Shown: positions 6,682 through 64,000 of the stretch, one piece after another
Numbering within the stretch: position 1 is the stretch's first letter
Layout of the letters: every line of letters begins with the position of its first letter
Source: Syntrophales bacterium
GTDB taxonomy: Bacteria > Desulfobacterota > Syntrophia > Syntrophales > Fen-1087
DNA: 64,000 nt
NCBI GenBank assembly: GCA_034678725.1
Contig: JAXDBM010000049.1
Span: forward strand, 10,878-74,877
Direction of reading: 5' to 3'
Position numbers and translations under genes: made by a program
Notes under the pieces: generated by a model
Told to the model about the DNA's origin: nothing
What the model saw: only the letters and a program-made list of their open reading frames with translations
Database searches by the model: none

Positions 6682-8466
6682 TTACTGCTGCTCCTTCTTT
6701 CTCATCTTGTAGAAGTCGAAGATGAAGATGAAGTTGAGGATCAGCATGATGCCCATGATGATCTGGACCGTCCAGCCCTGGCCGGGGGCTTTGGCGATGT
6801 TGGCCGGCATGACGACGATCATGAACCAGATGATCGCACAGGTCACCGTGATCCAGAGCAGGTAGGCCGGCACGACCGCCATGACGGCGAATTTCGACTT
6901 CAGCTTCTTGGACACGAATGCCGCGCCGGTCATCAGGGCGATCGCGGCGATGAGCTGGTTCGCGGCGCCGAAGGAAGGCCACACGATGGTGAACTGCTTG
7001 CTCCAGGCGAGGTAGATTCCGATGGCCGCCGGCACCAGCGAGGCGATCCAGCGGTTCGTCAGGACGCTGTAGAGGCCCTTGGCTGCATCCTTCACGGGGG
7101 CCAGCATCTCGACAAGGCAGTACCGGGCGATGCGGTTCGTCGTATCCAGCGTCGTCAGCGCGAAGGCGGAGATCCACAGGCCGGCCAGGATCTTGACGAT
7201 CTTCGTGGGGATGAAGCTGAGGAAGCTTGCCGCCACCATGTCGGCGTAGGTCTGGACGACGAGGTTCGCCTGATCGAGTTTCAGAGACGACGATATCTTG
7301 GTGAAGAGCTCGCCCCAGTTGTCGAGCGTCAGGGCGAAAACGGGGGCTGTGAAGGCGGCGCCCGAAGCGGCGGCCTTGGCGGCGTCGGCGGCCACCTGGG
7401 CGGCGTGGCCGTTCTTCAGGGCCGTGAAGCCGAAGCCCGCGATGCCGCAGATCACGATCGTGGAGAGGAACCCCTCCGTGAACATGGAGCCGTAGCCGAT
7501 GAAGAGCCCGTCGGACTCCTTCGTGATCTGCTTGGACGATGTCCCCGAAGCCACCAGGGAGTGGAAGCCGGACAGCGACCCGCAGGCGATGATCAGCGGA
7601 ATGGCCGGCCAGAAGGGCGTCGGCTTTCCCCCGATCAGGTTGGGCGAGAACGTGGTGTAGGCGGGGATCTCGATCGCGTGGAAGGTGAAGAAGGCGGCGA
7701 TGAACCCGATGGCGATGCCGAAGTAGAGGAGCCAGGAGTTCAGGTAGTCCCGGGGCTGCAGCAGGATGTTCACCGGGATGGCCGCGGCGATGATGATGTA
7801 GATGAAGAGGATCACCAGCCAGGCCTCGAAGCTCAGGCGGACCGGGACGAGGGTTCCCAGCCAGATGGCGATGGCCATCATGACGATCCCGATGACCGTG
7901 GCGATGGGCAGGTTCATCTTCATCTGGTAGATGAGGTAGCCCAGAATGATCGCGGCGATGGTGACGAAGATCGAGGCGCCGGCGATCTCCGGCGTCTTCA
8001 CGAACATGGAGGAGATGACGGTGCCGAAGGCCGCCACGACCAGGATCAGGAGGAAGAAGACGATCCAGTAGAAGGCCGTGCCCGTCCGCTTGGAGATGAG
8101 GTCGGTGGCGACGAACTGGATGGACTTGCCGTCGTAGCGCATGGAGGCCATGAGCGCCAGGTAGTCGTGGACGGCGCCGATGAAGATGTTCCCCAGCCAG
8201 ACCCAGGCCAGGGCGGGGAGCCAGCCCCAGCACATGGCCATTGCGGGGCCGACGATGGGGCCCGCGCCCGCGATGGACGAGAAGTGATGGCCGAAGAGGA
8301 CCATTCGATGGGCCGGGACGTAGTCGATGCCGTCGTAGAGGCGCTTGGACGGGGCATCGATCTCGTCCGAGGCCCGGACAACATCCCGTTCGATCTTTTT
8401 TCCGTAGGTGAAGTACAGGCCTACGTAAAGGATGAAGCCGATGATGCCGATGATGGTGGTAGTCAT
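6682..8466 (-). CDS. cstA: Carbon starvation protein A family transporter (CstA/BtsT pyruvate-peptide transporter family)
   Basis: FGHHFSSIAGAGPIVGPAMAMCWGWLPA...GAVHDY signature in a 594-aa polytopic protein. The overlapping 6620..8233 ORF is an R/P/H-rich shadow. Confidence 0.9.
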   Translation of the reverse strand: MTTTIIGIIGFILYVGLYFTYGKKIERDVVRASDEIDAPSKRLYDGIDYVPAHRMVLFGHHFSSIAGAGPIVGPAMAMCWGWLPALAWVWLGNIFIGAVHDYLALMASMRYDGKSIQFVATDLISKRTGTAFYWIVFFLLILVVAAFGTVISSMFVKTPEIAGASIFVTIAAIILGYLIYQMKMNLPIATVIGIVMMAIAIWLGTLVPVRLSFEAWLVILFIYIIIAAAIPVNILLQPRDYLNSWLLYFGIAIGFIAAFFTFHAIEIPAYTTFSPNLIGGKPTPFWPAIPLIIACGSLSGFHSLVASGTSSKQITKESDGLFIGYGSMFTEGFLSTIVICGIAGFGFTALKNGHAAQVAADAAKAAASGAAFTAPVFALTLDNWGELFTKISSSLKLDQANLVVQTYADMVAASFLSFIPTKIVKILAGLWISAFALTTLDTTNRIARYCLVEMLAPVKDAAKGLYSVLTNRWIASLVPAAIGIYLAWSKQFTIVWPSFGAANQLIAAIALMTGAAFVSKKLKSKFAVMAVVPAYLLWITVTCAIIWFMIVVMPANIAKAPGQGWTVQIIMGIMLILNFIFIFDFYKMRKKEQQ

Positions 8467-8835
8467 GAACTTTCTCCTTTCGTTGGATGAAAAAAATTAA
8501 GATAAAGAACCGGTCCCTGCTTCGGGATTACATCTATTACATTACAGACGTGACCGGGTGGTCCGGCATCGTCTGCGTTTCCCTGACTTCCTTCAAGCTG
8601 TCCGGATTTCGCTTGCCCGGAGCTTGAAAGGACCCCGCACATGGGTGCAAATTTAGTCCCATCAAAATTGAAAGTCAATCATTTTTCCTGGCCCGCCCAT
8701 CCGCAAAGAGTTCATTTTTCTTGACTTCGAGGTTTTACGGGAGCATCATTCTGGCAAGTGAACCGGGGGCGGGGCAGGCCGTTTTCCGTGCCTATGTTCA
8801 GTTCCGCTTCGAACCTTTTCGCGGGAGGTGACAAG

Positions 8836-9438
8836 ATGCCACAGGACGCGCAAACCGGATCCGCCGTCGAGGACCTCAGGATCGGCGGCAAGATCAGGGA
8901 TCTTCGGGAAAAGAACTTTTTTACCCAGCAGGACCTGGCCGCCAAGACCGGGCTGACCAGGGCCGTTCTGGCGGAAATCGAGGCGGACGAGGTTATGCCG
9001 CCCGTGGCCACCCTGCTCAAGCTCGCCAGGGCGCTCAATGTGGGCATGGCGTATTTCTTCAAGGACGAGGCCCCGGTGGAGCAGGTCTCCATCACGCGGG
9101 CGGGGGAGCGGGTCCGCGTCAAGCGGCGGCCCCACCACCGTGAAGGCGAGGTCGATTACGTCTATGAATCCCTCGAGGCCCGCATGCCCGGCAAGCACAT
9201 GGAGCCGCTGCGGGTGGACTTCGTTCCCATGGAGACCGCCGACATGGTGTTCACCAGCCACGAGGGGGAGGAATTCCTCTTCCTCCTGGAAGGCACGCTG
9301 GAGTTCCGCACCAACGACCGGGTGGAAACCCTCTCCGCGGGCGATGCCCTGTATTTCGATTCCGTCCTGAACCACAGCTTCCGGTCGCTGACCGACCAGC
9401 CGGCCAGGGCCGTCGTGGTCGTCTGGAACAAGGTTTGA
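8836..9438 (+). CDS. XRE-family HTH transcriptional regulator with a C-terminal cupin domain
   Basis: ATG 8836 preceded by GGGAGGTG. HTH region IRDLREKNFFTQQDLAAKTGLTRAVLAEIE, then a cupin-like C-terminus (HEGEEFLFLLEGTLEF...GDALYFDS..NH). Confidence 0.85.
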   Translation: MPQDAQTGSAVEDLRIGGKIRDLREKNFFTQQDLAAKTGLTRAVLAEIEADEVMPPVATLLKLARALNVGMAYFFKDEAPVEQVSITRAGERVRVKRRPHHREGEVDYVYESLEARMPGKHMEPLRVDFVPMETADMVFTSHEGEEFLFLLEGTLEFRTNDRVETLSAGDALYFDSVLNHSFRSLTDQPARAVVVVWNKV

Positions 9439-9451
9439 CAGGGGGACCCCG

Positions 9452-10015
9452 ATGATTGAAATCCGTTTTCACGGGCGGGGCGGGCAGGGGACGGTGGTGG
9501 CCACCATCCTGCTGGCCAAGGCCTTTTTCCAGGCGGGCTGGCAGGTTCAGAGCTTCCCCTTCTTCGGGGTCGAGCGGCGCGGCGCGCCCGTCGAGGCCTA
9601 TGTCCGCCTGGACCGCAAGAAGATCCTGCTCCGGACCAACGTGACGGAACCCGACCATGTCGCCGTACAGGATCAGACGCTCCTGCACAGCATCAGCGTC
9701 ACCCGGGGCCTCAAGCCGGGCGGCTGGATCCTGATCAACAGCCCGTCGGCGCCCGCGGACCTCGCGCCCTTTGCCGGATTCCGGCTCGCTCACGTCGATG
9801 CGAACCGGATCGCCATTCAGCACAAGTTGGGGACGCGGACCCATCCCATCGTCAACACGACCATGATCGGCGCCTTTGCCCGGGTGCTGGAAATGCCGCC
9901 CCTGAAGGCCGTGGCGGAAGCCATTCGGGAGGACATCCAGACCGAGGCGGAGCGCAACATCGAGGCGGCCCGGGAGGCCTTTTCCCAGGTCTGCCTGGCG
10001 GGCATGATCGAATAG
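9452..10015 (+). CDS. 2-oxoacid:ferredoxin oxidoreductase, gamma subunit
   Basis: RFHGRGGQGTVVATILLAKA N-terminal signature of POR/VOR/KOR gamma subunits. Confidence 0.85.
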   Translation: MIEIRFHGRGGQGTVVATILLAKAFFQAGWQVQSFPFFGVERRGAPVEAYVRLDRKKILLRTNVTEPDHVAVQDQTLLHSISVTRGLKPGGWILINSPSAPADLAPFAGFRLAHVDANRIAIQHKLGTRTHPIVNTTMIGAFARVLEMPPLKAVAEAIREDIQTEAERNIEAAREAFSQVCLAGMIE

Positions 10016-10033: not shown

Positions 10034-11779
10034 ATGAACGAAGCCATGAAGCCAATACCCCTCTACATGCCGCGCACCTATCTCACCACGGAGAGCAACA
10101 AGACCGGTTCCTGGCGTTTCCTGCGTCCGCGGTACGACGAGAAGACCTCGCCCTGCAGCGCCGCCTGCCCGGCCGGCGAGGACATCGCCAGAATCGAGAT
10201 GCTGGCCGCGCAGGGGCTATTCAAAGAAGCGTGGGAGACAATCCTGCGGGAAAACCCCCTGCCGTCGGTCTGCGGGCGCGTCTGCTTCCACCCCTGCGAG
10301 GGCCGGTGCAACCGACGGGAGTTCGACGCGGCCGTGGCCATCCACAGCCTCGAGCGCTTTCTCGCCGATACGGCAATCCGCTACCGGATCACGCCGGAGA
10401 TGGAGACGCGGCCCGCGCAGCAGCGGAAAATCGCCGTGATCGGCTCCGGCCCGGCGGGCCTTTCGGCGGCGTGGTTCCTGTCCCTGCTGGGCTATGCCTG
10501 CCATGTCTACGAGGCCTCGTCCGAGGCGGGCGGCGTGCTGCGCTGGGGGATTCCCGCGTACCGCCTGCCGCTGAACGCGCTCCGCCATGACCTGCGGCAG
10601 ATCGAGGCCCTGGGCGTCTCGATCTACACGGGAAGGCCGGTGGGCCCGGACCTGCTGGCGGACCTGAAAAGGGATTATGACGGGGTCTTCATCGGCTGCG
10701 GCCACGGCCGGGGAATGTCGCTGCAGGCGCCCGGCGAGGAGCTGCCGCAGGTCGGCGAGGGCCTGGATTTCCTGCGCGAACTCCGAGCGGGCGGGAAGCC
10801 CTCCTGCGGGGGGGTGTCGGCGGTTGTCGGCGGCGGAAACACGGCCGTCGACGTGGCGCGCAGCATCGTGCGCCTGGGCGGAAAGGCGCTGCTCCTCTAC
10901 CGGAGGAGGCGTCAGGACATGCCCGCCTTCGATCTGGAAGTGGAAATGGCCCTCGAGGAGGGCGTGGAGCTGCAGGAACTGGTCGCTCCGGCGGCTGTGG
11001 CTGCCGATGGGGACGGAGTCGTCCTGACGCTGCAGGAGATGAAGATCGCCGGCGAGGAGGGCGGCCGGGGGCGTATCGTGCCGGACGCGGGAAAAACGCG
11101 GCAGGTCCGCGTGGAGAGGGTCTTCAAGGCCATCGGCGCCGGTGCCGCGGAACCCTGGCACCGGCCCCCGGAAGGGGCGCCGGGCCTGCTGCGGTTGAGT
11201 CATGCCGTCCTGGTGCACGGGCAGCCGGGCGCCGTCACGGCCTTCGGCGGAGACTTGACCAACGATACCCGGAGCGCTGTCCATGCCGTCGCCTCGGGCA
11301 AACAGGCGGCCATGGCGTTCGACACGCTTTTTCGGGAAGGGGTCGATGCAATCGTTCCGAAGCTGGATTCCTGCCGGGTCGGCGGTGGCCCGTCGCTTTC
11401 CATGGAGATTTACATGGGCGGGGAGCGGCGGTTGAGGAACCCCCACGTGGTCCGCTTCGAGGAAATCAACACCGATCACTTCCAGTTCGCTTCCCGGGTG
11501 ACCCAGCCGCGCCTGCTCCGGGACGAGCGGATCCGGTCGTTCGAGGAGATCGACCTGAAGATTTCCGCCCACCTGGCCATGAAGGAGTCCGAGCGCTGCT
11601 TCAACTGCGGCCTGTGCAACCAGTGCGACAACTGCTTCATCTTCTGCCCGGACACCTCGGTGATCCGGGACAAGGACCATCAGGGACGGCACATCAACTA
11701 TGACTACTGCAAGGGGTGCGGCCTGTGCGTGGTGGAATGCCCGCGCAACGCCATGTCTCTCGAGGAGGAGAAGTCATGA
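10034..11779 (+). CDS. Fusion protein: OFOR delta-type ferredoxin elements split by a GltD/NfnB-like FAD/NAD(P)H oxidoreductase module
   Basis: N-terminus TGSWRFLRPRYDEKTSPCSAACPAG (delta-subunit-like). GltD-like Fe-S region PLPSVCGRVCFHPCEGRC. Dinucleotide folds IAVIGSGPAGLSAA and VVGGGNTAVDVAR. C-terminal 2x[4Fe-4S]: CFNCGLCNQCDNC...CKGCGLCVVECP. Confidence 0.85.
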   Translation: MNEAMKPIPLYMPRTYLTTESNKTGSWRFLRPRYDEKTSPCSAACPAGEDIARIEMLAAQGLFKEAWETILRENPLPSVCGRVCFHPCEGRCNRREFDAAVAIHSLERFLADTAIRYRITPEMETRPAQQRKIAVIGSGPAGLSAAWFLSLLGYACHVYEASSEAGGVLRWGIPAYRLPLNALRHDLRQIEALGVSIYTGRPVGPDLLADLKRDYDGVFIGCGHGRGMSLQAPGEELPQVGEGLDFLRELRAGGKPSCGGVSAVVGGGNTAVDVARSIVRLGGKALLLYRRRRQDMPAFDLEVEMALEEGVELQELVAPAAVAADGDGVVLTLQEMKIAGEEGGRGRIVPDAGKTRQVRVERVFKAIGAGAAEPWHRPPEGAPGLLRLSHAVLVHGQPGAVTAFGGDLTNDTRSAVHAVASGKQAAMAFDTLFREGVDAIVPKLDSCRVGGGPSLSMEIYMGGERRLRNPHVVRFEEINTDHFQFASRVTQPRLLRDERIRSFEEIDLKISAHLAMKESERCFNCGLCNQCDNCFIFCPDTSVIRDKDHQGRHINYDYCKGCGLCVVECPRNAMSLEEEKS

Positions 11780-12945
11780 AACGCGTCCTGGAAGGAAGCC
11801 ATGCGGTGGCGGAAGCGGTGCGGCTGGCGAAGGTGCAGGTGATCTCCGCCTATCCGATCACGCCGCAGACCCATATCGTTGAGATCCTCTCGGAATACTG
11901 CACCAAGGGGGCGATGAGCGCCAAGTTCCTTCGAGTGGAGAGCGAGCATTCCTGCATGGCCGCGCTGATCGGCGCCCAGACTGCGGGAGTCCGGACTTTC
12001 ACCGCCACCTCCGGACAGGGGCTGGCCCTGATGCACGAGCTGCTCCACTGGGCGGCCGGCGCCAGGCTTCCCATCGTCATGGCCGAGGTCAACCGGGCCC
12101 TCGCGCCGGGCTGGAACATCTGGATCGACCAGACGGACAGCCTCGCCCAGCGGGACACCGGCTGGATCCAGATGTACTGCGAAGACGGCCAGGAAGTCCT
12201 CGACACGACGCTCCAGGCCTTCCGCCTGGCCGAGACGGTCAACCTGCCCGTCATGGTCGTTCTGGATGCCTTCTATCTCTCCCACACCTACGAGGCCGCC
12301 GACGTGCCCGCGCAGGAGGAGGTTGACGGCTTCCTGCCGCCCTATGTGCCGCGGTTTCAACTGGACACGGCTCACCCATGCGGTTTCGGGCCCCTTGTCC
12401 CCCCGGCCGATTACATGGAGATGCGCCACAGCATCGCCATGGCCATGGAGGAGGCCCTGGTCCGGTTCGACGAGATCGAGGACGACTTCGCCGGCCGCTT
12501 CGGCCGCCGCTATGGGCCGGTGGAGGCCATCGGCTGCGAGGACGCCGAGATCGTCTTCGTCACGACCGGAACGCTGACGAGCACCTGCCGTCTCGTGGTG
12601 GATGAATTGCGGTCGAAAGGGGATAAGGCGGGGATCCTGAAGCTCAAGCTCCTGCGCCCCTTTCCCTTCGAGCGGATCCGTCAGGCGCTGAAGCGCGCGA
12701 AGAAGGTGGCCGTCATCGACAGGAATTTCTCGTTCGGCGCCGGCGGGATCTTCGCCCAGGAGGTGCGGGCCGCCCTGTGCAACGTCTCGGACCACCCGCC
12801 CGTCTTCGGCTTTGTCGCCGGCATCGGCGGCCGGGACGTCACGCCCGGGCTGCTGATGGAAATCTACGAACAGGTCAGGAAAAGCGAGGCGCCGCAAAGG
12901 GAGAGTGTCTGGATGGGCCTGAAGGAGGTCAATCATGCCGACTGA
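11776..12945 (+). CDS. 2-oxoacid:ferredoxin oxidoreductase, alpha subunit
   Basis: ATG 11776 overlaps the upstream stop (ATGA). MKRVLEGSHAVAEAV...ISAYPITPQT signature. Confidence 0.9.
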   Translation: MKRVLEGSHAVAEAVRLAKVQVISAYPITPQTHIVEILSEYCTKGAMSAKFLRVESEHSCMAALIGAQTAGVRTFTATSGQGLALMHELLHWAAGARLPIVMAEVNRALAPGWNIWIDQTDSLAQRDTGWIQMYCEDGQEVLDTTLQAFRLAETVNLPVMVVLDAFYLSHTYEAADVPAQEEVDGFLPPYVPRFQLDTAHPCGFGPLVPPADYMEMRHSIAMAMEEALVRFDEIEDDFAGRFGRRYGPVEAIGCEDAEIVFVTTGTLTSTCRLVVDELRSKGDKAGILKLKLLRPFPFERIRQALKRAKKVAVIDRNFSFGAGGIFAQEVRAALCNVSDHPPVFGFVAGIGGRDVTPGLLMEIYEQVRKSEAPQRESVWMGLKEVNHAD

Positions 12946-13831
12946 CGACATCATGACGGATATCATGGACCGGGAATACGTCCACTCGGGGCACGTCGGG
13001 TGTCCCGGCTGCGGCGCCACGATCGCCATGCGCTTCCTGCTCAAGGCCCTGGGGGAGAAGACCATGATGGTGCTGCCGGCCTGCTGCTGGTCGGTGATCG
13101 CGGGACCCTATCCCCAGTCCACCTTGAACATTCCGGTGATTCACGCGGCCTTCGAAACGGGGGGCGCGACGGCCACCGGGGTCCGGGCCGCCCTGGACAT
13201 GAAGGGGGATCGGGAAACGACGGTCGTCACCTGGGCCGGCGACGGCGGGACCTTCGACATCGGCTTTCAGGCGCTCTCGGGCGCCGTGGAGCGCAACGAG
13301 GACTTCATCTACGTCTGCTACGACAACGAAGCCTACATGAACACGGGCATTCAGCGCAGCTCGTCCACGCCCTACGGGGCCTGGACGACGACCACCACCG
13401 GCGCGGACTGGAAAAAGCTGCGCAAGAAGAACATCGTGGAGGCCCTGGTGGCCCACCGGATCCCCTACGCGGCGACGGCCAGCATCGCCTTTCCGGACGA
13501 CCTGCTCCGCAAGGCCCGGAAGGCGAAGGAGGTGAAGGGCTCCCGGTTCCTTCACATCTACGCAAGCTGCCCCACGGGCTGGCGCATCCCCTCGGAGATG
13601 TCCGTCCGGATCGCCCGCATGGCCGTCCAGACCAACATCTTTCCCCTCTACGAGGTGGAAAACGGCCTGCGGTACACCATCAACTACAAGCCCCGCGAAT
13701 ATCTCGTCCGCGAGTATTTCAAGCTCCAGGGGCGCTTCCGGCACCTGACCGACGCCGACCTCGACGAGATCCAGAAGATGGTCGACGAGGACTGGGCATT
13801 GCTCCTCCGCAAGGCGGGCGAGCGCGCCTGA
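12935..13831 (+). CDS. 2-oxoacid:ferredoxin oxidoreductase, beta (TPP-binding) subunit
   Basis: CPGCG motif and the TPP motif GDGGTFDIG...YDNEAYMNTG. Overlaps the alpha subunit gene by 11 nt. Confidence 0.9.
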   Translation: MPTDDIMTDIMDREYVHSGHVGCPGCGATIAMRFLLKALGEKTMMVLPACCWSVIAGPYPQSTLNIPVIHAAFETGGATATGVRAALDMKGDRETTVVTWAGDGGTFDIGFQALSGAVERNEDFIYVCYDNEAYMNTGIQRSSSTPYGAWTTTTTGADWKKLRKKNIVEALVAHRIPYAATASIAFPDDLLRKARKAKEVKGSRFLHIYASCPTGWRIPSEMSVRIARMAVQTNIFPLYEVENGLRYTINYKPREYLVREYFKLQGRFRHLTDADLDEIQKMVDEDWALLLRKAGERA

Positions 13832-58613: not shown

Positions 58614-59357
58614 ATGGCATCATCCGGTCAGCCGGACCAACCCGTTGCGGTTGTAACCGGAGCCGCCACGGGCATCGGGGCCGCCTGCGCCCGAGCGCTG
58701 GCGGAGAAGGGCTTTCGGGTCGGCATTCACTATCGGCGCAGCACCGCTGCGGCCGGGGCCCTGATGGCCGAGCTGGGTGAAGCATTCCTGCTCCGCGGGG
58801 ACTTGTCGCGGGAAGAGGATGTCGATGGCATCGTGGAGCGGATCAAGGACGAGGCGGGGCGGGTGGACGTCCTCGTCAACAATGCGGGCCTGTCGCTCAA
58901 TGCCGACATCCACGCCATGCGCCTCGAACAGTTCGACGAGCAGCGGGCCCTGACGCGCGGGACCTGGTACCTGACCAAGCGCATCCTGCGGCAGTTCATG
59001 ATACGACGCAACCGGGGGCGGATCATCAACATCACCAGCGTCGTCGGACACACGGGCAACGGGGGGCAGATCGCCTACACGATGGAGAAGGCCGCCCTGG
59101 ACGCCTTCACCCGGTCCCTCGCGAAGGAGCTGGCGGGCCGGGACATTCTTGTGAATTCGATTGCGCCCGGCTTCATCGACACGGACATGACGGCGGACCT
59201 TCCGGAAGAGGTCCGGGAACGCATCCTCGCCGGCATTCCCATGGGGAGAATGGGCAGGCCGGACGAAGTGGCCGAGGTGGCGGCCTTCCTGGCCAACGGC
59301 GGGAGCTACATCACGGGCTCCGTGATCCACGTCAACGGGGGGCTCTATGGCGGCTGA
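58614..59357 (+). CDS. fabG: 3-oxoacyl-ACP reductase (SDR, FabG-like)
   Basis: TGAATGIGAA, NNAG, and YTMEK (the YxxxK motif). ATG 58614 follows AAGGGGGA; ATG 58599 (ATGA overlap with fabA) is an alternative. Confidence 0.85.
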   Translation: MASSGQPDQPVAVVTGAATGIGAACARALAEKGFRVGIHYRRSTAAAGALMAELGEAFLLRGDLSREEDVDGIVERIKDEAGRVDVLVNNAGLSLNADIHAMRLEQFDEQRALTRGTWYLTKRILRQFMIRRNRGRIINITSVVGHTGNGGQIAYTMEKAALDAFTRSLAKELAGRDILVNSIAPGFIDTDMTADLPEEVRERILAGIPMGRMGRPDEVAEVAAFLANGGSYITGSVIHVNGGLYGG

Positions 59358-59817
59358 CGAACAAATGAAGGCGATCATTCTGAAGGCGATTCCCCAGCAG
59401 CCGCCGTTCCGTTTCATCGACGAGTTGCTGGAGCTGGATGACGATCGCAGCATCGGCGCCTACCGGTTCCGGCCGGACGAGTACTTCTACCGGGGGCATT
59501 TTCCCGGACGTCCCGTGACGCCCGGCGTCATCCTCATCGAGGCCATGGCCCAGACGAGCATCGTCGCCCACGGGCTGTACCTTTCCATGAAGAAAAGTGG
59601 ATCGTCTCCGGATGACTTGAAGCGAATCAGCACCCTGTTCACCTGCGCCGAAACGGTGGAATTCACCGGGATCGTGGCGCCGGGCGAGCGGATCGTCTTC
59701 CGGGGGGAAAAGGTCTATTTTCGCATGGGGAGCCTGAAGGCAAAAATTGTTGCGGAGCGGGAGACCGGGGAAGTCGTCTGCCGGGGAACGCTGGCCGGCA
59801 TGGGGGTCCGTTTATGA
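59347..59817 (+). CDS. FabZ-like hot-dog fold 3-hydroxyacyl-ACP dehydratase
   Basis: PPFRFIDEL and YRGHFPGRPVTPGVILIEAMAQ match the FabZ catalytic His/Glu block. Overlaps fabG by 11 nt. Confidence 0.75.
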   Translation: MAADEQMKAIILKAIPQQPPFRFIDELLELDDDRSIGAYRFRPDEYFYRGHFPGRPVTPGVILIEAMAQTSIVAHGLYLSMKKSGSSPDDLKRISTLFTCAETVEFTGIVAPGERIVFRGEKVYFRMGSLKAKIVAERETGEVVCRGTLAGMGVRL

Positions 59818-61094
59818 AAAAGCGAGTCGTGATTACGGGCATGGGGGTGACCGCGCCGAATGCCCACGGGCTGGAGGCCTTTGAGTCGGCCCTGCGCGAG
59901 GGCCGGTCGGGGATCCGCTTCATCCCGGAGCTGAAGGAGTTGAATTTCGCCTGCCAGGTGGGCGGCATCCCGCAGGATTTCGAAAGGATCCGCAAGCAGT
60001 ATTTCGATCATGAAAAGCTGCTGTCGATCAACGACAACATCGGCTATGCCTCCGTCTCGGCCATCGACGCCTGGCGGGATGCCGGCTTCGACATCCCGGA
60101 TCCCGAAGACGACCGGGTCGACTGGGACACGGGGATCGTGATCGGATCCGGAATCGGCGGCATGGATACGATCGCCCGTTCCGTCGTGCCGATGGTGAAC
60201 GACGGCAAGGTCCGCAGGCTGGGAAGCCGGATCGTCGAGCAGGTCATGAACAGCGGCACCAGCGCCCGGATCGCCGGGCTGCTGGCACTGGGGAACCAGG
60301 TGACTTCCAATTCGTCGGCCTGCAGCACCGGCAACGAGGCCATCATCGAGGCCATGCTGAAGATCCGGACGGGCCGGGCCAGGCGGATGCTGGCTGGAGG
60401 CTCGGAAGGGGCCTCGCCCTACATCTGGTCCGGGTTCGACGCGATGCGCGTCATCTGCCGGAAGTTCAACGAAGCGCCGGAGCAGGCCTCCCGGCCCATG
60501 AGCGCCACCGCGGGCGGCTTCGTTCCCGGCGCCGGCGGGGCGGTGCTGGTCCTGGAAGATCTGGAGACGGCCAGACGGCGCGGCGCGCGCATCTACGCCG
60601 AGGTCCTCGGCGGCGCCCTGAACTGCGGCGGCCAGCGCCGGGGCGGGTCCATGACGGCGCCCAACCCGGACGGCGTCAGCCGCTGCATCCGCGGGGCCAT
60701 CGCGGACGCGAATGTTTCGCCCCGCGACATCGACGCCATCAACGGCCACCTGACGGCCACCTATGCTGACCCCATGGAAGTCCGGAACTGGTCCGCGACG
60801 CTCGGCCTTCCGCCGGAGGATTTTCCCCTGATCAACGCGACGAAATCACTGATCGGACACTGCCTCGGCGCCGCCGGGGCCATCGAAAGCGTCGCCGCCG
60901 TCCTGCAGATCCACAGGGGGTTCGTCCATCCCTCGGCAAACTGCGAGGATGTCCACCCCGAACTGGAGCGCTTCGCCGACAAAATCCCCCGAAAGGCCGT
61001 GGACGTGCCCGGCCTCAAGATCGTCGCCAAGGCCGGATTCGGATTCGGCGACGTCAACAGTTGCCTGATCTTCCGAAAATGGGAAGAGAATTGA
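59814..61094 (+). CDS. 3-oxoacyl-ACP synthase I/II (FabB/FabF-like elongating KS)
   Basis: Cys-His-His triad contexts SNSSACSTGNEAI, INGHLTAT and KSLIGHCLGAAGAIE. ATGA overlap with the upstream gene. Confidence 0.9.
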   Translation: MKKRVVITGMGVTAPNAHGLEAFESALREGRSGIRFIPELKELNFACQVGGIPQDFERIRKQYFDHEKLLSINDNIGYASVSAIDAWRDAGFDIPDPEDDRVDWDTGIVIGSGIGGMDTIARSVVPMVNDGKVRRLGSRIVEQVMNSGTSARIAGLLALGNQVTSNSSACSTGNEAIIEAMLKIRTGRARRMLAGGSEGASPYIWSGFDAMRVICRKFNEAPEQASRPMSATAGGFVPGAGGAVLVLEDLETARRRGARIYAEVLGGALNCGGQRRGGSMTAPNPDGVSRCIRGAIADANVSPRDIDAINGHLTATYADPMEVRNWSATLGLPPEDFPLINATKSLIGHCLGAAGAIESVAAVLQIHRGFVHPSANCEDVHPELERFADKIPRKAVDVPGLKIVAKAGFGFGDVNSCLIFRKWEEN

Positions 61095-61124
61095 AAGCGC
61101 AAACAAAATCAAAGGAGTTTTCAT

Positions 61125-61370
61125 ATGGATGAGAAACAGATTTTTGCGGAGATGATCGGCATTCTGAGGGTGTACACGAAGGACGCGACCCTCCTGGACA
61201 AAGCCACGCCGGCCACCCACATCCTGGACGATCTCAAGGTCAATTCCGCCCGCCTGGTGGATGTGATCATCAAGTGCGAGGACGTCTTCGGGATCACGAT
61301 CGAGGACGACGAGGCCGACAAGATCCGCACCATCGGCGATGCCGTTGAACTGGTCAAGAAGAAGCAATGA
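61125..61370 (+). CDS. Acyl carrier protein (dedicated)
   Basis: 81 aa, acidic helical bundle, with a putative phosphopantetheine serine in LDDLKVNSARLVD. Confidence 0.85.
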   Translation: MDEKQIFAEMIGILRVYTKDATLLDKATPATHILDDLKVNSARLVDVIIKCEDVFGITIEDDEADKIRTIGDAVELVKKKQ

Positions 61371-63099: not shown

Positions 63100-64000
63100 G
63101 TGTTGAAAGATAACGAGAAAGTCGGCGCGGTAATGGTCGTCGGGTCGGGCATCGCCGGTATTCAGGCGTCCCTGGACCTCGCAAATTCCGGTATGAAAGT
63201 GTACCTCGTGGAGAACGGGATCAGCATCGGCGGCGTCATGGCCCAGCTCGACAAGACCTTTCCCACCAATGACTGCTCGGCCTGCATCCTCTCCCCGAAG
63301 CTTGTGGAAGTGGGGCGTCATCCCAACGTGGAGATCATGACCCGCCGCACGGTGGAGTCCGTGGAGGGCGAGCCGGGCAGATTCAAGGTCAAGCTGACCC
63401 GGGCCCCCCGGTTTGTCGATCTGGACAAGTGCACGGGCTGCGGCGACTGCGCCAATGCCTGCCCCGTGTCCGTCAAGTCGGATTTCAACGAAAACCTGAA
63501 CGAGCGCAAGGCCACCTACCGCCATTTCCCCCAGGCCATACCCAGCGGTTACGCCATCGACAAACTCGGGACCTCCCCCTGCAAGGCGGCCTGTCCCACC
63601 CATATCAGCGTCCAGGGCTATGTGGCCCTCATCTCCGCGGGCAAGTACAAGGAAGCCCTCAAGCTCATCAAACAGGAGAACCCCTTCCCGTCCGTCTGCG
63701 GCCGGGTCTGCAACCATCCCTGCGAGGAGGCCTGCATGCGGGGCAAGGTCGAAGCGCCCATCGACATCATGCACCTCAAGCGCTTCGTGGCCGATCTGGA
63801 CCTGAACGCCGAGACCCGCTACATCCCGGAAGTCAAGGAGAAAAAAGATAAAAAGGTTGCCGTTGTCGGCGCCGGTCCGTCCGGCCTGACGGCCGCCTAC
63901 TATCTGGCCGCGAACGGATATGGCGTGGATGTCTTTGAAGCCCTGCCCGTGGCCGGCGGCTGGATGGCGGTGGGGATCCCCGAATACCGCCTCCCCAAGG
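63100..64000 (+). CDS. HdrA-like FAD/Fe-S oxidoreductase with an inserted GltD-like NAD(P)H module; the 3' end lies outside the window
   Basis: Not in the ORF track because no stop falls inside the window. GTG 63100 lies 7 nt after AGGAG. VMVVGSGIAGIQASLDLANSG, DKTFPTNDCSACILSPKL (HdrA signature), CTGCGDCANACP, then NPFPSVCGRVCNHPCEEAC and VAVVGAGPSGLTAAYYL (GltD-like). Confidence 0.8.
   Translation, partial: MLKDNEKVGAVMVVGSGIAGIQASLDLANSGMKVYLVENGISIGGVMAQLDKTFPTNDCSACILSPKLVEVGRHPNVEIMTRRTVESVEGEPGRFKVKLTRAPRFVDLDKCTGCGDCANACPVSVKSDFNENLNERKATYRHFPQAIPSGYAIDKLGTSPCKAACPTHISVQGYVALISAGKYKEALKLIKQENPFPSVCGRVCNHPCEEACMRGKVEAPIDIMHLKRFVADLDLNAETRYIPEVKEKKDKKVAVVGAGPSGLTAAYYLAANGYGVDVFEALPVAGGWMAVGIPEYRLPK

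Follow-up and report, generated by a model that had tools for sequence, protein, structure and literature searches.

Several 2-oxoacid:ferredoxin oxidoreductases (OFORs) are linked to pyridine nucleotides, namely the phenylglyoxylate:NAD+ oxidoreductase PadEFGHI and the 2-oxoglutarate:NADP+ oxidoreductase KorABC, both of Azoarcus evansii, and the pyruvate:NADP+ oxidoreductase of Euglena/Cryptosporidium. Pad has PadF as its delta subunit and, as a further subunit of its own, the flavoprotein PadH; the pyruvate:NADP+ oxidoreductase carries a fused P450-reductase-type module. Here, an OFOR operon from a Syntrophales bacterium was analysed, which is located on a stretch of 64,000 nucleotides (assembly GCA_034678725.1, contig JAXDBM010000049.1, positions 10,878 to 74,877 of the forward strand). 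This whole stretch is called the window, and positions refer to it. The operon has the gene order gamma-X-alpha-beta, and X codes for a protein of 581 residues, which we read as a PorD-type delta subunit split by a GltD/NfnB-type module for flavin adenine dinucleotide (FAD) and NADP(H). As in Pad, Kor and the pyruvate:NADP+ oxidoreductase, OFOR electrons would be passed to a pyridine nucleotide via a bound flavoprotein, but modules and topologies differ. NAD(P)-linked OFORs with other modules being already known, the new feature would be a linkage brought about by insertion of a permuted GltD cassette into delta.

The best matches of X, in sequence as well as in structure, are StnC of the Sporomusa ovata StnABC complex (8oh5_C) and NfnA of NfnABC (9bov_A, 9n5u_A). 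In StnC, the GltD fold comprises residues 102–565, binds two [4Fe-4S] clusters and is fused with a NuoG-like domain. Like X, StnC and NfnA have a two- or three-cysteine N-terminal motif and an RCxxCG segment after the flavin body, they can be aligned through X residue 534, and they carry an FAD/NADPH module inserted in an Fe-S host, where it serves as a non-bifurcating NADPH port. They differ from X in the host, which is a NuoG-like subunit instead of PorD, and in the proximal cluster ligand, which is Lys instead of Glu (E107); furthermore, the X operon is without the Bfu (HydBC-like) bifurcating core of the StnC/NfnA complexes.

Compared by description, DsrL also resembles X, with an NfnB-like two-cluster domain, FAD/NAD(P) sites, a linker of about 100 residues, a C-terminal 2x[4Fe-4S] ferredoxin domain feeding a partner, and a YRR motif that governs NADP(H) preference (PMC7596348). 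Unlike X, DsrL keeps the N-terminal positions of NfnB Cys39 and Cys42, partly as Ser/Thr or Arg, has no PorD arm, and has DsrAB as partner (PMC7596348). DsrL was defined by dsrAB in the organism, by the DsrL domain order, and by a gene not linked to POR/VOR subunit genes; POR/VOR-linked homologues were excluded in that study without being studied (PMC7596348). X, embedded among POR/VOR subunit genes, is excluded as a DsrL by the third of these points.

PorD halves of X

The Pfam domains of X are Fer4_20 (37–116), Pyr_redox_2 (132–370) and 4Fe-4S dicluster (527–575). TGSWR is found at residue 24, and the two motifs C528xxC531xxC534xxxC538P and C559xxC562xxC565xxxC569P are located at the C-terminus. 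The native C-terminus scored 64.9 bits against TIGR02179, above the cutoff of 60.05, and 70.2 bits against PorD_Arch. For a splice test, residues 37–519 were removed and residues 1–36 were joined to 520–581, resulting in a protein of 98 residues. This protein matched TIGR02179 at 84.8 bits, unbroken over profile positions 7–77 of 78, and PorD_Arch at 89.0 bits. It was aligned to residues 13–80 of the Methanosarcina acetivorans PorD structure 9bt4_G with E = 1.8e-18 and no gap at the junction ('TESNKTGSWRFLRPRYDEERCFNCGLC...' against 'TLANKTGGWRNFRPVYIYEKCTKCGIC...'). The first 61 residues of X by themselves matched PorD_Arch at E = 4.4e-4, and the arm residues T24, G25, W27 and P32 were kept in 57–60 of 60 relatives (alignment given below). 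Because both the spliced protein and the N-terminal piece align to PorD, the TGSWR arm is regarded as delta-derived.

Ordinary PorD/VorD (9bt4 chain G) likewise has the TGxWR..RP arm, two CxxCxxCxxxCP motifs and the delta position in a gamma-delta-alpha-beta order. It is about 85 residues long, in contrast to the 581 residues of X with a flavoprotein of about 480 residues between the arm and the first cluster motif, and it lacks the two extra invariant cysteines (C522, C525) that precede the first motif in X. Thus, X passes the cutoff of the OFOR delta family, has the arm, the motifs and the operon position, and lies far outside the 80–130 residues of a small protein of this family; with 581 residues and an inserted flavoprotein it is a chimeric variant rather than a canonical delta. 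No small dicluster ferredoxin or separate delta reading frame was found elsewhere in the window or in the 81 fetched loci.

A preliminary description of the window had given the coordinates and overlaps of a gamma/X/alpha/beta operon, which proved exact from reading frame coordinates and Pfam, and had interpreted X as a delta subunit split by a GltD/NfnB-like module, which is borne out by the gain in TIGR02179 score on splicing and by the contiguous 9bt4_G alignment. The pair of C-terminal 2x[4Fe-4S] motifs that it listed is present at 528 and 559. Of its N-terminal delta motif, written as TGSWR...C..AC, the TGSWR part is delta; the C41/C45 pair belongs to the inserted module, where the Fer4_20 match runs from profile position 28 onward.

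The exact sequence of X is deposited as GenBank OPY08830.1, 'Glutamate synthase (NADPH) small chain [Syntrophaceae bacterium PtaB.Bin095]'. Together with the fact that the largest portion of X is GltD-like, this name would suit an independent GltD/DsrL-like NAD(P)H oxidoreductase that merely lies inside the operon and is no OFOR subunit. However, X missed the cutoffs of the glutamate synthase small-subunit models widely (TIGR01317, 127.4 vs 447.7; TIGR01318, 189.2 vs 482.95; TIGR01316, 241.1 vs 471.75), and no gltB or dsr genes are located nearby; at the 93%-identical locus L001, no GltB gene was found within ±6 kb. Both PorD halves are present in X, no other delta gene accompanies it, X adjoins OFOR genes in 76 of 80 loci, and gamma-X fusions exist (see below), while POR/VOR-linked genes stand outside DsrL by the definition of the DsrL authors (PMC7596348). 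An independent oxidoreductase is therefore largely refuted and extremely improbable, and the GenBank name is, judged by these profiles, wrong. X very probably serves as the delta equivalent of the OFOR and brings an NAD(P)H-flavin module with it.

Circular permutation of the GltD/NfnB-type module

The native Fer4_20 match begins at profile position 28, so that the usual N-terminal CxxC is missing there; the cysteine motifs of this region are C41xxxC45P and PLPSVC80GRVC84FHPC88EGRC92. Residues 499–527 (IRSFEEIDL...ESERC522FNC525GL) resemble the ordinary start of a GltD Fe-S domain. When this segment was moved in silico before residue 39, the Fer4_20 score increased from 66.6 to 94.8 bits and the profile coverage from 28–110 to 1–110 of 113, and the canonical C-x2-C-x4-C-x3-CP spacing was restored. 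In the native protein, the EAxRCxxCG-type segment is found after the flavin body, abutting the PorD cluster motif. The GltD Fe-S domain of X is a circular permutation, a layout that it shares with StnC and with NfnA of NfnABC.

Rossmann motifs were found at residues 137 (GSGPAG, FAD) and 266 (GGGNTA, NAD(P)H). A complete glutamate-synthase-small-subunit-like unit with Fe-S region and two Rossmann folds had been noted before; it was recovered here with FAD and NAD(P)H motifs invariant in the 60 relatives. The linker 441–498 is covered by the alignments with 9n5u_A and 9bov_A, and the NF009454 match spans X 37–536. In the AlphaFold2 model (pLDDT 94.1, pTM 0.92), X forms one compact body, and the linker was predicted with pLDDT of about 95–98. 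Foldseek searches with this model returned NfnA of NfnABC and StnC at the top (TMq 0.69–0.75), with NfnL, GltD and DPD lower (TMq 0.58–0.62).

Predicted cluster ligands and pyridine nucleotide site

X was aligned with 59 diverse full-length relatives at 33–62% identity (n = 60). Fourteen cysteines (C45, C84, C88, C92, C522, C525, C528, C531, C534, C538, C559, C562, C565 and C569) and E107 were invariant in all 60 sequences, and C41 was kept in 59. C80, with conservation in 38 of 60, is unlikely to be an essential ligand. Also invariant were G137, G139 and G142 (FAD), G266–G268 (NAD(P)H), R177 and G406-D407. For comparison, the ligands in Thermotoga maritima NfnB are Cys39/42/47/100 for the distal cluster and Cys51/90/96 with Glu117 for the proximal cluster (PMC7596348). 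E107 of X aligns with the flavin-proximal cluster ligand, which is Lys170 in StnC ('LKRF' in StnC/NfnA) and Glu in NfnB and NfnL.

The 15 cysteines and E107 give 16 ligands, which is sufficient for four [4Fe-4S] clusters, and we infer that they bind four. By alignment, the GltD proximal cluster would be held by C45, C84, C88 and E107, the GltD distal cluster by C41, C92, C522 and C525, and the two PorD clusters by C528, C531, C534, C569 and by C559, C562, C565, C538, respectively. Owing to the uninterrupted run C522xxC525xxC528xxC531xxC534xxxC538P, the GltD distal cluster would adjoin a PorD cluster.

Y289-R290-R291 of X match the NADP(H)-phosphate-binding YRR of NfnB. In NfnB, the 2'-phosphate of NADP(H) is bound by this motif, which is also the mark of the NADP(H)-preferring DsrL-2 enzymes (PMC7596348); it predicts NADP(H) as the cofactor of X. 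YRR was present in 44–45 of the 60 family members. Those with x-L-E instead, in which Leu takes the second place of the motif and Glu the third, may form an NADH-preferring subgroup.

Two of these residues bear on the question of whether the FAD of X acts like the bifurcating FAD of NfnB, such that NADPH oxidation would be coupled to reductive carboxylation and to reduction of a second, higher-potential acceptor, or that the reverse confurcation takes place. E107 is a proximal Glu ligand as in bifurcating NfnB, in contrast to the Lys of non-bifurcating StnC/NfnA, R177 (= NfnB R201) is invariant, and such a coupling would overcome the thermodynamic obstacle to 2-oxoacid synthesis driven by NADPH. 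However, non-bifurcating glutamate synthase beta has both the Glu ligand and the Arg, and StnC shares the Arg, so that neither is diagnostic; R177 was discarded as a bifurcation marker, being common to bifurcating and non-bifurcating homologues. Moreover, no NfnA/PyrK-like or other partner for a second path was found in the operon or conserved across the 81 loci, and X is structurally nearest to the non-bifurcating GltD modules of NfnA/StnC. The bifurcating-type module that the preliminary description had considered is hence unsupported, as the nearby genes provide neither a second electron path nor an NfnA-like partner, and flavin-based bifurcation or confurcation is improbable here. A specific form, in which the FAD of X links the 2-oxoacid/acyl-CoA couple with NADPH and with external ferredoxin or another acceptor, the module acting alike across POR-, VOR-, OOR- and IOR-type enzymes, is a long shot; it would amount to reversible, ferredoxin-sparing 2-oxoacid synthesis and a new class of electron-bifurcating OFOR.

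Distribution, synteny and natural fusions

The spread of the fusion, which the preliminary description had left to be mapped by architecture, was assessed by a profile scan with one genome per species. At least 600 species-level genomes contain a relative of X, from syntrophs to Gemmatimonadota, Planctomycetota, Beta- and Alphaproteobacteria and Actinomycetota, and the best 80 loci were examined. Among proteins at 50%-identity representatives, 18,267 matched at E ≤ 1e-3, and more than 100 clusters had the full architecture.

In 76 of the 80 loci, far more than chance would give, the X homologue was directly accompanied by co-oriented OFOR alpha and/or beta genes, and gamma was also present at these loci where the contig extends that far; among the four remaining loci are a truncated contig (L026) and an IorA-GltD fusion (L027). 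Two gene orders were found. The order gamma-X-alpha-beta, with X in the canonical delta slot, occurs in Syntrophales, other Thermodesulfobacteriota, Gemmatimonadota, Planctomycetota and others. The order gamma-alpha-beta-X (clade ii) occurs in Beta- and Alphaproteobacteria and Actinomycetota, including Sulfurisoma sediminicola, Gallionella, Bradyrhizobium and Streptomyces. Beyond gamma, X, alpha and beta, no conserved neighbours were found across the 81 loci.

Natural fusion proteins of POR-gamma and X, with 730–760 residues, were also detected; one of these, P0155, retains a TGAWR arm and the motif CxxCGxCxxCDNCxxFCPD. Conserved synteny in 76 of 80 loci and the natural gamma-X fusions both speak for a physical assembly of X with the OFOR core, which had been expected from the overlapping genes.

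IorA-type (POR_N + TPP_C) proteins fused with GltD and ferredoxin domains were found with lengths of 1100–1190 residues. In these (L027 4273–7665 on the plus strand, P0187, P0244, P0250 and P0261), the GltD module is inserted into the ferredoxin domain; in P0244, the first CxxC of the host stands ahead of the insert and 'RCLSCG...' after it. This suggests that the same GltD cassette was inserted independently into a second OFOR class. At L080 (6001–10179), an X homologue lies beside an alpha with the substrate loop DRTLDPPGDFG, as in the oxalate oxidoreductase 5c4i, and no gamma gene was detected at this locus; it may code for an NAD(P)-linked oxalate oxidoreductase. From the gamma-X fusions, the IorA-type fusions and the pairing at L080, it follows that the module serves several OFOR classes. 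Some genomes have two X/GltD-type genes side by side together with two alpha/beta sets (L030 225–7638; L052 3940–5181), which at L030 are arranged as alpha-beta-X followed by X'-alpha'-beta'.

In the databases, the same fused architecture is represented by NCBIfam NF009410 (PRK12771, 'NAD(P)-binding protein'), to which X 17–579 aligns over model positions 26–565 of 566, and which carries no functional name. At a cutoff of 516, the window X scored 479.9 bits and the clade-ii X of Sulfurisoma (L036) 766.4 bits; as it scores below the cutoff, the window X is assigned to a sister clade with gamma-X-alpha-beta order. The family thus seems to have been seen in databases and literature but not studied, and the fusion is absent from reviews on GltD-like flavoenzymes and on flavin-based bifurcation.

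OFOR core and substrate

The closest solved relatives of both catalytic subunits belong to the four-subunit pyruvate:ferredoxin oxidoreductase (PFOR) of M. acetivorans, with E = 2e-98 for alpha against 9bt4_B and E = 1.5e-73 for beta against 9bt4_C. Alpha scored 480.3 bits against PorA_Arch (cutoff 550) and 412.6 bits against the VOR alpha model (cutoff 646). Beta scored 410.6 bits against NF008818, '3-methyl-2-oxobutanoate dehydrogenase subunit beta' (cutoff 405), and 365.9 bits against PorB (cutoff 405); its motifs GCPGCG, PACC, GDGG...N and SCP are readable in the translation.

Alpha keeps a Thr (YPITP) and an Arg (VNRA) that align with Thr31 and Arg114, the substrate-carboxylate residues of Desulfovibrio africanus PFOR. 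The pocket loop of alpha reads 'NRALAPGWNIW' in the clade of the window and 'NRA(V/I)(S/G)APINIW' in the 9bt4 PFOR and in clade ii; given this difference, the window enzyme may be something other than a simple PFOR. Pyruvate or a branched-chain 2-oxoacid is the probable substrate. A neighbouring gene for a CstA-family transporter (Table 1) and an aceE gene beside the Sulfurisoma cluster point weakly toward pyruvate or peptide-derived 2-oxoacids; the CstA family includes pyruvate and peptide transporters. The aceE gene in question (L036 193–2877, minus strand, Sulfurisoma sediminicola) codes for a homodimeric-type pyruvate dehydrogenase E1, matched at 1528 bits; it is the next gene upstream of the gamma-alpha-beta-X cluster, in divergent orientation.

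The subunits missed the Pad equivalog cutoffs throughout (gamma, 130.8 vs 300; alpha, 302.2 vs 700; beta, 240.6 vs 700; delta part, 34.2 vs 150). PadH was rejected as a homologue of the insert, since the 25 NCBIfam families that the GltD part of X matches do not include any Pad model. The five-subunit OFORs of Aquificales/Nitrospira were also rejected as relatives, their extra subunit being CODH/ACS-epsilon-like and not a flavoprotein.

Proposed electron transfer

On balance, the complex is rather probably an NADP+-reducing, non-bifurcating 2-oxoacid oxidoreductase. The delta subunit of a four-subunit POR/VOR-type enzyme would have been turned into a built-in NADP(H) port. Electrons would run linearly from the thiamine pyrophosphate-bound substrate in alpha/beta via the [4Fe-4S] cluster of beta, the two delta clusters, the distal and the proximal GltD cluster, and FAD to NADP+, according to 2-oxoacid + CoA + NADP+ → acyl-CoA + CO2 + NADPH, without free ferredoxin. 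From roughly −500 mV at the donor to −320 mV at the acceptor, the reaction would be strongly exergonic and therefore effectively irreversible. NAD(P)+ reduction is a possible direction for GltD-type modules that end in a ferredoxin domain, as seen in DsrL-1A (PMC7596348). For the window enzyme, we infer this direction of electron flow, the choice of NADP+ and the non-bifurcating behaviour.

Several points weigh against this proposal. Which cysteines go with which cluster was derived from counting, conservation and profile alignment, and about 14 of the 60 family members have no YRR but x-L-E, so that the cofactor preference varies. Passing electrons at −500 mV to NADP+ would discard about 35 kJ/mol, which is odd for an energy-limited syntroph (Syntrophaceae), and the delta clusters may remain ferredoxin-accessible, in which case NADP+ would not be the sole acceptor. 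Alpha and beta fit no substrate-specific model cleanly, with alpha nearest to PorA yet below its cutoff and beta barely past a VOR-type cutoff. Finally, our literature search found no description or biochemical characterisation of an OFOR delta-GltD fusion, the only trace being the exclusion of POR/VOR-linked genes in the DsrL study (PMC7596348).

The energy balance and the delta clusters lead to a serious rival of a linear path, in which the enzyme would mainly be a ferredoxin-dependent OFOR with the fused module as a resident ferredoxin:NADP+ oxidoreductase. The delta clusters would equilibrate with the NADP(H) pool (NADPH supply, overflow, redox poising), and electrons would be split between ferredoxin and NADP+. 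The PorD dicluster domain is indeed fully conserved, including the ferredoxin-binding region of ordinary OFORs, ferredoxin is thought from the literature to bind near the distal cluster in NfnB, and less energy would be wasted by a syntroph. Nevertheless, no sequence feature of X indicates an exposed ferredoxin site, the continuity of C525-xx-C528 argues for a dedicated intramolecular wire, and in clade ii the cassette is found in aerobic or facultative lineages (Streptomyces, Bradyrhizobium, Solirubrobacterales), where a low-potential ferredoxin pool would be less expected. Such a dual-acceptor or valve function is therefore considered rather unlikely.

If NADP+ reduction along the linear path holds, the fusion would be a widespread way of 2-oxoacid oxidation without free ferredoxin. 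NADPH would be produced directly and irreversibly, and redox balances in genome-scale models would change; at present, the genes for X in these organisms are annotated as 'glutamate synthase small chain' or as 'FAD-dependent oxidoreductase'. The permuted GltD module, with ends meeting at one Fe-S cluster, appears to be a cassette for Fe-S hosts, namely PorD, IorA-type and NuoG-like (StnC) proteins, and would be useful for studies of modular redox-enzyme evolution and for engineering of NADPH-linked decarboxylases.

Operon and neighbouring genes

The coordinates of the operon, the parts of X and the flanking features are collected in Table 1. The stop of X and the start of alpha overlap in an ATGA at 11776, alpha shares 11 nt with beta at 12935, and Shine-Dalgarno-like GGAGG/GAGG sequences precede X, alpha and beta. 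The stop of the regulator gene is located 13 nt upstream of gamma. Its true start is probably an internal ATG near 8836, because the homologue at L001 was called at 200 residues. The regulator gene was also found upstream in six loci (L001–L004, L009 and L013). The CstA gene is shared by three neighbourhoods (window, L001 and L003) and absent in more distant loci.

Table 1 Features of the OFOR operon and its surroundings in the window
Feature	Position	Strand	Basis and remarks
CstA-family transporter gene	6682–8466	−	divergent from regulator-OFOR operon; Pfam CstA on L001 homologue
Promoter-like site	8721–8749	+	weak consensus match
XRE-type helix-turn-helix (HTH) + cupin transcriptional regulator	8758–9438	+	Pfam HTH_3 + Cupin_2
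gamma, OFOR PorC/VorC type	9452–10015	+	187 residues; Pfam POR 124.7 bits; TIGR02175 PorC_KorC 191.7 (cutoff 81.1)
X, putative chimeric delta (581 residues): PorD + inserted permuted GltD/NfnB-type FAD-NADP(H) module	10034–11779	+	
X residues 1–36, PorD N-terminal arm TGSWRxxRPxY	10034–10141	+	contiguous with 9bt4_G after splicing out insert
X residues 37–116, GltD Fe-S domain, profile 28–110; C41, C45, C84, C88, C92, E107	10142–10381	+	Fer4_20 65.9 bits
X residues 131–440, FAD domain with embedded NADP(H) domain	10424–11353	+	Pfam Pyr_redox_2, Pyr_redox, NAD_binding_8
X residues 441–498, linker	11354–11527	+	also in NfnA(Bfu), StnC, PRK12814-type proteins
X residues 499–527, permuted first GltD Fe-S segment, FxEI...ExRC522xxC525G	11528–11614	+	Fer4_20 permutation test
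X residues 528–581, PorD 2x[4Fe-4S] ferredoxin domain	11615–11776	+	TIGR02179, PorD_Arch, 9bt4_G matches
alpha, OFOR domains I + II	11776–12945	+	389 residues from ATG; Pfam POR_N 237.5, PFOR_II 105.3 bits
beta, OFOR, thiamine pyrophosphate + [4Fe-4S] binding	12935–13831	+	298 residues; Pfam TPP_enzyme_C

A second GltD-like module was found at the end of the window, in a reading frame at 63133–64000 (plus strand) that continues past the window end. It has an HdrA-like N-terminus (MVVGSGIAGIQASLDL..., TFPTNDCSACILSPK, CTGCGDCANACP), and continues from about 63571 with a GltD Fe-S/FAD module, which is 46% identical to X 38–179 and has Lys as the proximal ligand ('LKRF') as in StnC. This reading frame is presumably an HdrL-type HdrA-GltD fusion.

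Upstream of it, the translations of a row of reading frames on the plus strand were recognised as hotdog/FabZ-like (59347–59817), beta-ketoacyl synthase-like (59814–61094) and acyl carrier protein-like (61125–61370), which suggests a fatty-acid or polyketide-type cluster at 59347–61370, unrelated to the OFOR operon.

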